Positions 1-54,331 of a DNA stretch of 64,000 nucleotides are shown here, piece after piece. How positions within the stretch are numbered: the stretch's first letter is position 1; every line of letters begins with the position of its first letter. The notes under the pieces are model-generated. The model was not told the DNA's origin. It was given only the letters and a program-made list of their open reading frames with translations, and did no database searches. This DNA is from Candidatus Omnitrophota bacterium (GTDB lineage Bacteria; Omnitrophota; Omnitrophia; Omnitrophales; Aquincolibacteriaceae), in assembly GCA_043732705.1 (NCBI GenBank), contig JAYTHE010000025.1:315-64314 (forward strand), written 5' to 3'. The position numbers and the translations under genes were made by a program.

Positions 1-1238
1 CCTGTGAACAATTCATCTTTTGGATCTTTGCCCGCCAGCTGCGCAAGCTGAGCTTCACTGCGGTGAATGACAGGAATAACGGGCAGGCTAAATTTTTTGG
101 CAAATTCAAAATCCCGCTCATCATGCGCAGGCACAGCCATAATCGCGCCGGTGCCATAACTGGCGAGAACATAATCCGCGATCCAAATCGGAACCGGCTT
201 TTTATTAACCGGGTTGACCGCATAAGCACCCGTAAAAACTCCGGTTTTAGTTTTGGCTAAATCTGTTCTTTCAAGATCGGATTTATGCTGCGCTTGAGTT
301 TGATACTCCGTCACGGCCGATTTTTTAGAACCTGTTGCAATTTTTGAAACAAGCGCATGTTCCGGCGATAAGACTAAATAAGTCGCGCCGAAAAGCGTGT
401 CGGGGCGGGTTGTGTAAACTTTGACAGCCAGATCATTTTGGCTGTCATTCCCGCGAAAGCGAGAATCTAGTCCTGGATCCCCGCCTTCGCGGGGATGACC
501 TTCTCCTTCAATTTGAAAGGTCACCTCAGCGCCGGTTGATTTCCCGATCCAATTACGCTGCATTTCCTTAATGGATTCGGGCCAATCCAACAACTCCAAA
601 TCTTCCAAAAGCCGGTCCGCATAAGCCGTGATTTTCAAAACCCATTGCCGCATCGGCTTGCGAATTACAGGGTGATTACCGCGTTCACTTTTCCCGTCGA
701 TGACTTCTTCATTCGCGAGAACGGTTCCGAGTGCCGGACACCAATTAACAGCAATCGAAGCTTCATAAGCCAAGCCTCTTTCATAAAGTTTCATAAAAAT
801 CCACTGGGTCCATTTGAAATAACCGGGATCTGTCGTATTCACTTCGCGATCCCAGTCATAACTGAAACCGATGCGTTGGATTTGGCGGCGAAAAGTATTA
901 ATATTTTTTTCGGTGGTTGCGCGCGGATGCGTTCCGGTTTCAATTGCGTATTGTTCGGCCGGCAAACCGAATGCGTCCCAACCGATCGGATGCATGACAT
1001 TGAAACCGCGCATACGTTTGTAACGCGCGAGAATATCAGTGGCGGTGTAGCCTTCTAAATGACCGACATGCAAACCCGACCCCGAAGGATAAGGAAACAT
1101 ATCAAGAATATAGTATTTAGGTTTGCTAGCGTTTTCACCGGTGGGATCAGGTGTGCGAAAAGTTTTATTTTTAACCCAATAGTCCTGCCATTTGGGTTCG
1201 ATTTCGGGGAATGGATATTGCTTAAAGCCGGATGCCAT
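1..1238 (-). CDS. leuS: Leucyl-tRNA synthetase, N-terminal part. The gene continues past the window start. ATG at 1236-1238.
   Basis: Manual reverse-strand translation gives [21 protein letters not shown]...[21 protein letters not shown] (HIGH motif), then [21 protein letters not shown] and [16 protein letters not shown] (CP1/editing region). The ORF track misses it because it runs off the window edge. Confidence 0.85.
444..499. repeat. Family-1 GC-rich palindromic element, copy A, lying inside the leuS coding sequence.
   Basis: gtcattcccgcgaaagcgagaatctagtcctggatccccgccttcgcggggatgac. Two hairpins (attcccgc-gaaa-gcgagaat and atccccgc-cttc-gcggggat). Related copies at 21906, 45652 and 47827. 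Read through in-frame as [19 protein letters not shown]. Confidence 0.75.
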
Positions 1239-4509: not shown

Positions 4510-4948
4510 TTTTTGCACCGGACGCCATCCCACGGGGAGGTGTTAGCTTTCTAACGCTTCCCCGTGGGACGGTGTCCGTTAAAGCAACCCAGGCGATTGC
4601 TTGTTTGCGTTCATGCGCGAGCGAAAGCAATAATGTTTGATTTCGTTTGATCCCTAATTCGCGGTTCAAATTTGGAGATAAAAGCAAGCAAGGCTTTCCG
4701 CTGCTCTTTTTTTTAATTTGAATTTGAAGCATTCGCTTGGCCCATTGCTTTGCGGGAATTCGAAAAAGGGCAAGACAAGCCTGCTTTGCGGCAATACGCG
4801 CGGCAGCCGGTTCGGCAAAATGGCGTTTTGATTTACAGTAACGAATTTCACCGGCGTTTAAAAAACGGGCAAGAAAATCGGGATGGGTTTCGGTCTTCTT
4901 TTTAACGGTAGAAACTGAAATTTGTACAATTTTCTGGCGCAAAATCAC
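4499..4948 (-). CDS. acpS: Holo-ACP synthase (4'-phosphopantetheinyl transferase), a divergent member. Possible GTG start.
   Basis: IVQISVSTVKKK...AARIAAKQACLALF...SLAHERKQAIAWVALTD aligns with the AcpS layout (EAxxKA and SLSHE-like motifs). The start codon is uncertain. Confidence 0.5.
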   Translation of the reverse strand: MILRQKIVQISVSTVKKKTETHPDFLARFLNAGEIRYCKSKRHFAEPAAARIAAKQACLALFRIPAKQWAKRMLQIQIKKKSSGKPCLLLSPNLNRELGIKRNQTLLLSLAHERKQAIAWVALTDTVPRGSVRKLTPPRGMASGAKNAA

Positions 4949-17434: not shown

Positions 17435-17457
17435 CTTATCTTTATATTTTGTTTAAC

Positions 17458-17570
17458 CGTTCAAAAAGGGTTAGATGCGAGGCGCAAGCAAACGCCCGCG
17501 GAGGCGTAGAAGAACCTACGCCGCACAAGGAAGAGTAGCCTGCAACGAAGCAGATGACCTTTTTCAACGG
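17458..17570. repeat. Family-2 element, copy 3, between the C-methyltransferase and SDR genes.
   Basis: ccgttcaaaaagggttagatgcgaggcgcaagcaaacgcccgcggaggcgtagaagaacctacgccgcacaaggaag...gcagatgacctttttcaacgg. Confidence 0.7.
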
Positions 17571-18302
17571 TTAACTATTTGGTGGAACAATAATTTGGGT
17601 AATTTTTCCGTGCCTAATCACAATATGACTCGCCGTCAAAACCGGAATTTCTTCGTTCAAGATCTGCAGCATTTTACCGGCGACAAAGGCCGCTGTTTGC
17701 TGGCGCGCGGCATCCGCTTTGCCGAATAAATCAGAACGCATTTTGGTATTCATGCCTCCCGGACAAATAGTGACCACTTTGAGCCACTCAAGATTTTCTT
17801 TCGCGAGCGCTTCGGTCATCGCCAAAACTCCGAACTTGCTCGCGGAATAGCCCGCAATGCGCGGTACGGCGCGCACACCAGCCATGGACGAAACATTCAT
17901 CACAAGCGGTTGTTTGCTTTTTTTCAAAAATGGAAATGCCGCGCGGCACATCAAAAACACTGAAAATAAATTCCCGCGTAAATGCGCTTCGAATTCTTCG
18001 GGGGCCGTATCTTCAATCCGCTCCAGTTTACCGCCGTAAGCGGCGCTGTTCACGAGCAAATCAATTTTTGGCGTGCTTTTTTTTATCTCATGAAAGAGGC
18101 CTGCGACGGAATTAACGGAAGAAACATTAGCCTCGATCAACCGGAAATTTTTGGAAGGAATTTTTTTTCTGGCGGCGGACCAATGCTCGCTCGTACGGCT
18201 AACTCCAAAAACCTGCCAGCCGCTTTCAATCAAACGTTTGGAAAGCTCAAGCCCAAGTCCCCGTGAAGCTCCGGTAATCAGCGCAAACTTGCCGCTTGCC
18301 AT
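17571..18302 (-). CDS. SDR-family oxidoreductase.
   Basis: ALITGASRGLGLELSKRL...NSAAYGG...YSASKFGVLAMTEAL matches the TGxxxGxG and YxxxK SDR motifs. Confidence 0.8.
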   Translation of the reverse strand: MASGKFALITGASRGLGLELSKRLIESGWQVFGVSRTSEHWSAARKKIPSKNFRLIEANVSSVNSVAGLFHEIKKSTPKIDLLVNSAAYGGKLERIEDTAPEEFEAHLRGNLFSVFLMCRAAFPFLKKSKQPLVMNVSSMAGVRAVPRIAGYSASKFGVLAMTEALAKENLEWLKVVTICPGGMNTKMRSDLFGKADAARQQTAAFVAGKMLQILNEEIPVLTASHIVIRHGKITQIIVPPNS

Positions 18303-21843: not shown

Positions 21844-21905
21844 CTTCTAAACTCTTTTGTGCAATGTCATTGCGAGCCGTAAGGCGAAGCAATCTGACGC
21901 TTTTT

Positions 21906-21963
21906 GTCATTCCCGCGAAGGCGGGAATCTAGGCTGGATCCCCCCGATCAAGTCGGGGATGAC
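21906..21963. repeat. Family-1 palindromic element, copy B, between convergent genes.
   Basis: gtcattcccgcgaaggcgggaatctaggctggatccccccgatcaagtcggggatgac. First hairpin is a perfect 8-bp stem. Confidence 0.75.
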
Positions 21964-22027
21964 ACTTCGTGTCAGATCGCCGCGTCGCCCAAAAAGGGCT
22001 CCTCGCGATGACGAAAATTTTAGGACG

Positions 22028-45599: not shown

Positions 45600-45651
45600 T
45601 GACGACATTTTTTATGGAACAAAGTGAATATAAAAAATCTGTCGGAATTAA

Positions 45652-45727
45652 ATCCCCGCGAAAGCGGGGATCTAGGATTAAAAATTTGAATAATTTAGAA
45701 CTAGATTCCCGCCTGCGCGGGAATGAC
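45652..45727. repeat. Family-1 palindromic element, copy C, ending 5 nt before the sdhA ATG.
   Basis: aatccccgcgaaagcggggatctaggatt-(A/T-rich 21 nt)-ctagattcccgcctgcgcgggaatgac. Confidence 0.75.
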
Positions 45728-45732
45728 AAAAA

Positions 45733-47646: not shown

Positions 47647-47708
47647 CACCCAGGCTCACATCGGATGTGTATAACCCTGTACACATCCGATGTGTACGAG
47701 GTTACACA

Positions 47709-47785
47709 AATGAAGCTCACTTTAAAAGTTTGGCGGCAGAAAAATGAAATAAGTGCACAATTTACGGAACGCAGTGAAAGTAAAT
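47709..47785 (+). pseudogene. Degenerate duplicate of the sdhB 5' end (about 75 nt) upstream of authentic sdhB.
   Basis: atgaagctcactttaaaagtttggcggcag... versus sdhB atgaaattaatactaaaagtatggcggcaa... (MKLTLKVWRQ versus [10 protein letters not shown]). This frame terminates in a TGA overlapping the sdhB ATG. Confidence 0.6.
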
Positions 47786-47826
47786 TGTTTGCACGAATTT
47801 CATCCCAGAAACGCGAAGCGTTATCA

Positions 47827-47864
47827 GGGATCCAGAACTGGATCCCCGCCTGCGCGGGGATGAC
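47827..47864. repeat. Family-1 palindromic element, copy D (half element), 12 nt upstream of the sdhB ATG.
   Basis: gggatccagaactggatccccgcctgcgcggggatgac. Confidence 0.7.
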
Positions 47865-47876
47865 AAGGTTGAAAAT

Positions 47877-48641
47877 ATGAAATTAATACTAAAAGTATGG
47901 CGGCAACCAAACCAAAGCACTAAAGGTAAATTCGAAACTTACCACACCGACGCTGACGAACACATGTCCTTCCTTGAAATGCTGGATGTTGTGAATGAAA
48001 AACTCATTCACGAAGGCAAAGACCCTATCGCGTTTGACCATGATTGCCGCGAAGGTATTTGCGGCGCCTGCTCGATGGTCATTAACGGACTGCCCCACGG
48101 CCCGCAAAAAGCGACAACAACTTGCCAGTTACATATGCGCCACTTTAAAGACGGTGAAATCGTGGTGATTGAGCCCTGGCGCGCGGCAGCCTTCCCTGTT
48201 TTAAAAGACTTAGTCGTCGATCGCGGTTCCTTCGACCGCATCATTCAAGCCGGCGGATATACATCTGCGGCAACCGGCGGTGTTCCGGATGCGAATTCGA
48301 TTTTGATTCCGAAGGAAAGAGCGGATGAAGCCATGGACGCTGCGCAATGTATCGGCTGCGGCGCTTGTGTCGCGGCTTGCCCTAATGCTTCCGCGATGCT
48401 CTTCGTTGCGGCTAAAGTATCCCATCTTGCGAATCTTCCTCAAGGACAAATCGAAGCTAAAACCCGCGTGCAAAATATGGTGAATCGTATGGATGCAGAA
48501 GGTTTTGGAAATTGTACCAATCATGGCGAATGCCAAAGTTCATGCCCGAAGGAAATCTCAATTAAGTTTATCGCCAAGATGAATCGTGAATTTTTAGGCA
48601 GTTTGACCCACGAACAAAAAACCTCCAACGAATCTGCCTAG
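47877..48641 (+). CDS. sdhB: Succinate dehydrogenase/fumarate reductase iron-sulfur subunit.
   Basis: [16 protein letters not shown] (2Fe-2S), [21 protein letters not shown] (4Fe-4S/3Fe-4S) cysteine clusters. Confidence 0.9.
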
Positions 48642-49354: not shown

Positions 49355-49851
49355 CTAAGGATGAAACCCAATTTTAGGTTTGGGTTTTTCTTCTTGGGCA
49401 ACCATTTTCCGAATCACTTCAAAGACCGCTTGAAATTGCCCGTCGTATTTTCCTTCCATCTCCCTCAATTTTTTCAAAATTACTTCATGGCTGCGAATCA
49501 TCTCCCTTAGCCGGGTAAAAGTCCGCATGATTTGGATATTCACCTGTATCGCCTGTTTGGATCGAAGAACGCTCGAGAGCATGGCAACTCCATTTTCGGT
49601 AAAAACATAGGGCAAATAGCGTCTTCCTCATATTTCAAACTTGAGGTTGCAAATTGCAACCTCAAGTTTTCCATTTCTTTTTCAGTTAACCGAAACATAA
49701 AGTCATCGGGAAAGCGGTCTTTATTACGGCGAACCGCTAAGTTCACATATTTTGTCTCAACGCCATAAAGGGCAGAGAGATCATGATCCAACATAACTTT
49801 CTTGCCTTGTATCAGGTAGATTTTACTCTCGATAATATCCAAGTCTTTCAT
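49355..49851 (-). pseudogene. ORF6N (KilA-N-related) domain gene disrupted by a frameshift near 49615-49640.
   Basis: N-terminal frame IYLIQGKKVMLDHDLSALYGVETKYVNLAVRRNKDRFPDDFMFRLTEKEMENLRLQFATSS. The other frame continues [37 protein letters not shown]. The family consensus runs ...SQFVTSSWGGRRYLPY... across the break. Confidence 0.6.
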
Positions 49852-54150: not shown

Positions 54151-54186
54151 GCGATTTTTTTGAGCTCATATACTTTTTCCCATGTT

Positions 54187-54331
54187 CGTTCAAAAAGCTT
54201 TAGATGCAAGGCGCAAACAAGTGCCCGCGGAGGCGTAGTAAAACCTACGCCTCACAAGCTGCAAATCGTTTGGCGATTTGCTAAAGCAAATCACTGGCAG
54301 TTTGCAACGCAGCAGATGAAACTTTTTCAAC
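54187..54331. repeat. Family-2 element, copy 4, with a roughly 35-nt internal insertion carrying a hairpin.
   Basis: cgttcaaaaagctttagatgcaaggcgcaaacaagtgcccgcggaggcgtagtaaaacctacgcctcacaag...gcagatgaaactttttcaacg. Insert gcaaatcg-tttgg-cgatttgc. Confidence 0.65.

Follow-up and report, generated by a model that had tools for sequence, protein, structure and literature searches.

A palindromic repeat of the CGTC-1 REP class lies in frame within leuS, the gene of the essential leucyl-tRNA synthetase (LeuRS), of a Candidatus Omnitrophota bacterium, near the start of a stretch of 64,000 nucleotides that we analysed as a whole and refer to as the window. One close relative carries the same insert at the same place and another has an uninterrupted gene. 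From these sequence comparisons we put at roughly 0.85 the probability that a CGTC-1-type dimer was inserted in frame in leuS of an ancestor, was translated and tolerated there, and has since been inherited while drifting. The kind of element is not new, as palindromes of the CGTC-1 REP/RPE-6 class were already known to be translated inside essential genes, and the leuS insert reveals no new mechanism. What is new, and modestly so, is the host phylum Omnitrophota, the host gene leuS, and the recurrence of such inserts in two LeuRS loops. The range of selfish palindromes translated in essential proteins would thereby extend from Rickettsia and a few Proteobacteria to an uncultivated phylum.

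A CGTC-1 dimer in the reading frame of leuS

Translation of leuS on the minus strand, from 1238 to 3, yields 412 codons with zero stops; the 3' half of the gene lies beyond the window. The product matches the Pfam family tRNA-synt_1, LeuRS homologues with E-values down to 1e-236, and LeuRS entries of the PDB. All catalytic and editing motifs are kept in the visible part of the protein, where a HIGH-type HVGH (aa 57–60), the editing-site TTRPDT (aa 276–281) and D373 occupy invariant columns. The first-pass annotation had placed a GC-rich palindrome of its family 1 at 444–499, in frame within the CP1/editing region of LeuS, and the sequence, the coordinates and the minus-strand translation agree with that description, which gave no strand for leuS. 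The palindrome measures 56 nt, or extends over 443–500 when its 4-nt tags are counted. The gene and the parts of the element are as follows.

1 to 1238, minus strand: 5' part of leuS, codons 1–412, running off the window start, with the ATG at 1238
443 to 500, minus strand: CGTC-1 REP head-head heterodimer, in frame in leuS; codons 247–265 are read from base 500 to base 444
443 to 469, plus strand: module A, with tag TGTC (443–446), stem ATTCCCGC (447–454), loop GAAA (455–458), stem GCGAGAAT (459–466) and tail CTA (467–469)
470 to 473, no strand assigned: spacer GTCC between the two tails, 4 nt; the sister lineage L166 is 6 nt shorter here
474 to 500, minus strand: module B, in minus-strand reading with tag GGTC, stem ATCCCCGC, loop GAAG, stem GCGGGGAT and tail CCA; perfect 8-bp stem

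The dimer joins two hairpin modules (8-bp stem, 4-nt loop) in opposed orientation with their tags outermost. The element starts GTCAT and finishes ATGAC. On the plus strand, module B reads TGG, ATCCCCGC, CTTC, GCGGGGAT, GACC. The module scan recorded one mismatch in the 8-bp stem of module A (4-nt loop), namely the A at 462 on the plus strand; on the mRNA strand this position forms a G-U wobble. The RNA of the whole element can fold as a single 23-bp hairpin (-40 kcal/mol, z = -7.1). Counted from 444 to 500, the element is exactly 19 codons long (57 nt) and corresponds to LeuRS aa 247–265. In either orientation the whole dimer can be read through in just one of the three frames, and this is the frame used in leuS; the other two are closed by a stop, either the TAG within the central CTAG or the TGA within the terminal ATGAC. 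Against Rfam the intragenic element gave zero family matches, and only the four tRNAs were found in the window.

To which class of repeat does this architecture belong? According to Di Nocera et al. (2013, PMC3733652), the tag of CGTC-tagged REPs is unpaired and reads CGTC or, in many cases, TGTC. Their stems of 8–9 bp open with two A-T pairs, their loops have 4–5 nt and their 3-nt tail is near CCA; they form mostly head-head dimers with the tags outside and have no associated transposase. In that source, family 1 (CGTC-1) is defined by an 8-bp stem and a 4-nt loop, with TGTC or CCTC also allowed as tag. Judged by its sequence, the leuS element fits a CGTC-1 REP dimer, a class that includes Rickettsia RPE-6, because its tag, its 8-bp AT-initial stem, its 4-nt loop, its CCA/CTA tail and the tags-outside dimer match this definition. 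The 19-aa insert peptide, too, matches published CGTC-1 peptides, namely DSRFRGND (R. conorii, S. wittichii) and RHPREGGDP...DPRLRGG, the latter encoded by a CGTC-1 dimer in truB of E. litoralis; other intragenic CGTC-1 peptides given in this source are SFPRKRES and those of the CHSRESGNP type (PMC3733652 and its Additional file 3).

Where would these residues lie in the protein? In an AlphaFold2 model based on 62 aligned sequences (mean pLDDT 73.5), strands 237–244 and 271–276 form a beta-hairpin, residues 245–270 are coil, and pLDDT falls below 50 at 251–267. The first-pass annotation had proposed such a model as a way to see whether the insert is a surface loop. The low-confidence coil at the hairpin tip suggests that it is, and that the insert loops out in disordered form at the entrance of the editing domain, a short way upstream of the threonine-rich editing motif. 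We infer that LeuRS is made with the insert and accommodates it as a surface loop.

The module is dispersed in the window. The motif GTCATYCCCGCGnnnGCGRGRAT has 6 matches against 0.04 expected, a number that 0 of 100 shuffles reach. Five modules have at most one stem mismatch, with loops GAAA, GAAG and GCAG and stems ATTCCCGC/GCGGGAAT and ATCCCCGC/GCGGGGAT. In all, there are four module loci in the 64 kb. The three besides leuS are intergenic, between convergent or co-directional genes:

21905 to 21964, no strand assigned: CGTC-1 head-head dimer between the convergent GT87 gene and the gene for a 7555-aa product, nested in a palindrome at 21866–22016
45649 to 45728, no strand assigned: dimer with a 25-nt spacer, ending 5 nt before the ATG (45733) of a succinate dehydrogenase/fumarate reductase flavoprotein gene
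47830 to 47865, minus strand: CGTC-1 module that has a variant partner upstream; the flavoprotein gene lies on one side and the iron-sulfur subunit gene on the other

TGTC tags are found at 443–446 and 21905–21908 and, on the minus strand, at 45728 and 47865. The tail is CCA in module B and in the 47865 copy, and CTA in module A and in the copies at 21905 and 45728. The three dimers (443–500, 21905–21964 and 45649–45728) all carry their tags outside. The exact module pattern was absent from 83 compared loci, and a Pfam scan of 40 window ORFs detected neither Y1_Tnp/RAYT nor any other transposase domain. An intein, an intron and translational bypass were weighed as explanations of the leuS insert and rejected: it shows neither a stop nor a change of frame, splicing and homing-endonuclease motifs are absent, and a dispersed 56-nt repeat makes up its sequence.

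Other palindromes occur in the window. The composite at 21866–22016 consists of an outer pair of hairpins of the GTCATTGCGAG... type around the CGTC-1 dimer, and this outer family encodes peptides of the VIASEAKQS type, as seen in LeuRS loops of other Omnitrophota. The nested cluster lies within 12 nt of the stop of a single ORF of 7,555 codons (22028–44695, minus strand), giant genes being a reported trait of Omnitrophota (bioRxiv 10.1101/2023.11.21.568195). The spacer between the flavoprotein and iron-sulfur genes (47647–47876) is full of palindromes (47657–47711, 47800–47865), which create a 71-aa ORF at 47665–47880 that is probably spurious. A second repeat family of about 95–120 nt, with a GGCGTAG...CTACGCC hairpin, occurs at 1362–1481, 1669–1787, 17455–17573 and 54184–54283; two of its copies flank tRNA-Leu(CAA) (1488–1574) and tRNA-Ala(GGC) (1791–1866) just upstream of leuS. 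Finally, a 60-nt palindrome (4519–4578, 86% complementary) overlaps the annotated start of a YdjC-like gene, and a perfect 16+16-nt palindrome lies inside an ORF6N-domain gene (49637–49669).

Empty and filled sites in close relatives

Is the extra stretch an insertion, or a native loop that happens to resemble a repeat? From the xxF motif of the W-G-S-GA-x-F strand to V[FY]TTRPDT the loop has 10 aa in most homologues, in line with the figure of about 10 residues given at first pass for E. coli LeuS, and 32 aa in the window. Of the 22 extra residues, 19 are the element and the other 3 are specific to the lineage, arising from GAAGGA, duplicated in tandem at the left junction, and from two codons after the element, the latter common to the sister lineage. 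The first-pass annotation had counted about 31 aa in the loop and equated about 21 extra aa exactly with the repeat; the expansion by the element stands, but the figures have to be corrected to 32 aa and 19 codons, with 3 residues in addition. It had also called for an orthologue alignment to fix the insertion point, and in such an alignment T. thermophilus LeuRS matches query aa 9–246 and 270–396 and skips aa 247–269 between its residues 239 and 241.

Homologues were retrieved in two protein searches. The first, with the 412-aa fragment, matched only truncated LeuRS of up to about 1.75 times the query length (721 aa; the ratio is inferred from hit lengths) and missed close relatives of full length. 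For the second we used a chimeric full-length query, composed of window residues 1–412 and the C-terminal portion of the top GTDB match, and took the best 120 full-length matches. Named entries among these are almost all Candidatus Omnitrophota/Omnitrophica, most entries being nameless; taken with the gene order in common with Omnitrophota contigs, this assigns the window to that phylum. LeuS scans of genome and metagenome contigs gave nothing closer than 72–73% identity. The window sequence falls in a tight clade of four with the following three proteins, for which identities to the window refer to gap-free columns:

P0122 (locus L166): 92% identity; loop of 28 aa, filled
P0123 (loci L167/L168): 91% identity; loop of 10 aa, empty
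P0001: 91% identity; loop of 19 aa, with a different insert

P0123, a protein of 821 aa, has the loop AIEDSAEKIR, coded by GCAATTGAAGACTCAGCCGAAAAAATAAGA, and thus represents the empty site. Gene order in L167/L168 is that of the window (Sod_Cu, bactofilin/HTH, HTH, YdjC, SurE, x, leuS). A native loop of the same length in close relatives lacking the repeat, which the first-pass annotation had named as a possible objection, is contradicted by the plain 10-aa loop of this close relative. P0122 is intact, with 840 aa, and contains the same dimer as the window at an equal place and in the same orientation and frame. Apart from the shorter spacer, its right module is identical to that of the window at 26 of 27 nt, and in its left stem one pair is compensated (G-C to A-T) and another is broken. 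The insert of P0001 has 9 aa and is non-palindromic. Neighbour-joining gave the tree ((window, P0122), (P0001, P0123)), in which the differences in distance are small (92.1 vs 91.0–92.4%). The simplest history compatible with these sequences would be that the element was inserted once, on the common stem of the window and P0122. Since the site is empty in P0123 and P0122 carries the same insert, partly diverged, the insertion appears to be old, inherited and tolerated. Together with the inherited copy, the pair of empty and filled sites dates the insertion relative to speciation.

The host gene is constrained: between the window and L166 the LeuRS protein is 92% identical while third codon positions are 59% identical, which indicates that leuS is under purifying selection. 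In the shared element (444–500 of the window, 1595–1646 of L166), 13 of 16 third codon positions are identical vs 59% gene-wide. This excess is statistically weak and would hint faintly at constraint on the DNA or RNA, or at gene conversion from other copies, rather than pure drift. At its left end the insert interrupts GAAGA^C of the ancestral loop, and any target duplication amounts to at most 2–3 nt (GA/GAY), the boundaries being ambiguous.

We propose that a CGTC-1 dimer entered leuS of the ancestor of this Omnitrophota lineage at the tip of the beta-hairpin that opens the CP1/editing domain, within or beside the GAC codon between ...IED and SAEKIR of the ancestral loop. Because its length would by chance have been a multiple of three and it would have landed in the sole stop-free frame, the dimer would be transcribed and translated within LeuRS, to which it would add about 19 hydrophilic residues, rich in Gly, Pro, Asp and Arg, as a disordered surface loop. 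The insert would have been tolerated, presumably as a neutral passenger, and passed through at least one speciation, and it would now be drifting via small in-frame indels and stem substitutions.

Could the insert instead be an artefact, a repeat placed in leuS by mis-assembly, or could this leuS be a dead gene, a pseudogene copy? Repeats can mislead assemblers, and three related metagenome contigs do have in-frame stops in the 3' half of leuS. We nevertheless find such an explanation scarcely credible. The insert keeps the frame and is stop-free, the element is short enough to fit within one sequencing read, and the catalytic and editing motifs are all conserved; in the independently assembled L166, moreover, an intact leuS of full length contains this insert at the corresponding place. 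A pseudogene had been raised in the first-pass annotation as a finding that would overturn its reading; the intact sister allele P0122, insert included, speaks against it.

The stops in the related contigs are single, in frame and at conserved positions: L081 2456–2458, L082 3628–3630, and the E codon in VSTKEPFQ of L084. They represent TAG or TGA for Trp and a stop for Glu; sequencing errors or pseudogenes may account for them. A split or recoded LeuRS was considered for these three and dismissed as sampling bias. The stop-bearing relatives surfaced because the first search returned no target above its length ratio, and the chimeric full-length query returned intact relatives as a rule.

Expanded LeuRS loops in Omnitrophota

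How exceptional is the LeuRS loop of the window? We surveyed loop length in 116 full-length LeuRS with an extractable loop, from the best 120 retrieved, a set dominated by Omnitrophota-named sequences. The loop has 8–13 residues in 78 of the 116 (exactly 10 in 68) and 17–55 residues in the other 38 (33%). In LeuRS from outside Omnitrophota such expansion is rare, with about 3 cases in about 68 GTDB representatives and 3 in 67 metagenome loci. The first-pass annotation had considered in-frame tolerance of such an element unusual outside Rickettsia. This view finds no support, given that a third of the retrieved full-length LeuRS, mostly Omnitrophota-named, have an expanded loop, and that one survey counts about a hundred intragenic GTAG/CGTC REPs across many species, with GlyRS-beta and IleRS among the hosts (PMC3733652).

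Many of the long loops contain peptides of the type expected from translated REPs, such as HPERSEGS...PQDD, SSPRNDVIASEAKQS, SSPN..VGD..FPPKACGND and YPREGGDP. For annotators this means that odd Gly/Pro/Arg-rich stretches in MAG proteins may derive from repeats. Where DNA was examined, six sequences showed palindromic loop inserts, which represent five separate insertions as the window and L166 share one; a seventh has a simple repeat:

Window: CGTC-1 dimer
L166: as in the window, partly diverged
L082: CGTC-like dimer with 9-nt loops
L083: palindrome of the GTCATCCTGAGCGAAGCGAAGGATC type, -38.9 kcal/mol
L084: palindrome in a 46-aa loop, -88 kcal/mol
L086: palindrome of the GGGTGAGGG/CCCTCTCC type, -65 kcal/mol
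L085: simple repeat, recurring elsewhere on its contig

The junctions of the inserts vary by a few codons among lineages. We considered whether the dimer of L082 might descend from the same ancient insertion as that of the window and judged it independent: both its modules have 9-nt loops of a subtype of its own genome, and closer relatives are empty.

Insertions are concentrated at few places in the protein. At internal LeuRS sites we counted 64 insertion runs of at least 8 aa, 38 of them in the loop discussed so far (after P0121 residues 243–249). A second hot spot follows P0121 residues 375–376, where 26 of 120 sequences are expanded, often with REP-type peptides; a few minor sites exist besides. 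The second hot spot is about 130 residues downstream of the first, and the two lie near the entry and the exit of the editing domain. At the second (about 3–75 in the window, leuS aa about 392–412) the window itself has 8 extra residues, and its coding strand there, starting GTCATTCACCGCAGTGAA, may be a decayed module.

The best explanation for the recurrence at this loop is that Omnitrophota genomes bear a high repeat load and that selection keeps only those insertions that hit permissive loops. The two LeuRS loops are then naturally permissive insertion sites, a property useful for protein engineering or tagging. REP-type palindromes would on this view be a main source of LeuRS length variation in Omnitrophota, both loops having been colonised many times independently by different repeat families. 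A bolder reading would be that this exceeds passive tolerance, either because the REP machinery targets these sites (for example, with target GAC/GTC serving as a tag) or because the mRNA hairpin or the peptide is selected (for example, for pausing at a domain boundary). We regard this as unlikely.

Selection on the insert of the window would mean that it has been co-opted, acting in cis as an mRNA hairpin (through a translational pause at the boundary between catalytic core and CP1, or through mRNA stability) or as an extra loop with a new interaction. Such a role would account for the repeated occupation of the loop and for retention of the insert, which persists, its right module almost unchanged, in two lineages that are close to saturation at synonymous sites. 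The compensatory change in the left stem of L166, the wobble of module A on the mRNA strand and the position of both hot spots close to the ends of the editing domain point the same way. Yet the occupants of the loop are unrelated in sequence, in length (17–55 aa) and in exact position, and 68 of the 116 retrieved LeuRS, very close relatives included, do without any insert. In addition, another pair of the L166 left stem is broken, the excess of third-position conservation is statistically weak, and the peptide is modelled as disordered. Weighing these points, we consider co-option of the insert improbable.

The other route to more than passive filtering is a target-site preference of the mobilising enzyme, for instance for hairpin-prone or GAC/GTC DNA exposed on the lagging strand. 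IS200/IS605-type single-strand transposons insert beside a short motif that resembles their own end, and the empty site here reads GAAGAC followed by TCA, so that the target could supply one of the terminal GAC/GTC tags of the element; the share of internal insertion runs found in one loop (38 of 64) would also agree with targeting. We hold it to be very improbable, however, since junctions differ by several codons among lineages, the elements come from different families, and zero transposases were found among the 40 scanned ORFs. Insertions elsewhere in LeuRS would usually be lethal and hence unseen, so that a filter suffices.

Relation to known palindromic elements

A literature search on palindromic inserts in LeuRS and on REPs in Omnitrophota returned nothing specific to either. 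The leuS element is set here against the four closest known systems. The REPIN/RAYT system, reportedly described by Bertels and Rainey in 2011, resembles it in that two inverted REP hairpins make one larger hairpin acting as a unit. REPINs are GTAG-tagged and go with the RAYT tyrosine transposase, whereas the leuS element has an xGTC tag and the 40 scanned window ORFs contain no RAYT/Y1.

MITEs such as Nezha, Correia and ERIC share with the leuS element that they are small, non-autonomous palindromic repeats fused to or within ORFs; they differ in being typically 100–400 bp long, with IS-derived terminal inverted repeats and clear target-site duplications, as against 56–58 nt for the leuS element (Delihas 2011, PMC3184786). 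The leuS element is a palindrome throughout, its overlap with the empty site is at most 2–3 nt, GA(Y), and no parent IS was seen in the window.

Another parallel is offered by the Rickettsia palindromic elements, reportedly described by Ogata and colleagues in 2000 and 2002. Like RPE-6, RPE-4 and RPE-7, the leuS element is an in-frame palindrome in an essential gene, aminoacyl-tRNA synthetases being among the hosts on both sides (RPE-7 inserts are found in Rickettsia PheRS-beta and IleRS), and it shares the ATGAC signature of RPE-4/6/7 (Matsutani et al. 2013, PMC3767692). The resemblance to RPEs pointed out at first pass is borne out in this respect, with GTCAT...ATGAC at the ends of the element, as well as by its match to CGTC-1, since Di Nocera et al. 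equate CGTC-1 of R. conorii with RPE-6 and CGTC-4 with RPE-4 (PMC3733652). RPEs are likewise surface inserts present at the same site in related species, which corresponds here to the coil of low pLDDT and the copy in L166. The host, in contrast, is a member of Omnitrophota, with a gene order common to Omnitrophota contigs, and neither a Rickettsia nor an obligate intracellular alphaproteobacterium; and the leuS element is much shorter than RPE-1-type elements, which measure about 105–146 bp. Because its host is not Rickettsia, the element is not an RPE by name, though it and RPE-6 fall in one REP class.

From CGTC-1 REPs as published the leuS element differs in its GGTC tag on module B, a variant missing from the tags listed in the defining article, and in the very short spacer of 4 nt between the tails. 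The article names hosts from five phyla, mostly Alphaproteobacteria, with Omnitrophota unmentioned in the sections consulted, and LeuRS is absent from the host genes it gives (PMC3733652). The four loci within the 64 kb, three of them intergenic, would be in keeping with what this source reports for CGTC-1, which has no linked transposase and whose copies are dispersed, mostly between convergent or co-directional genes and occasionally in frame within a gene.
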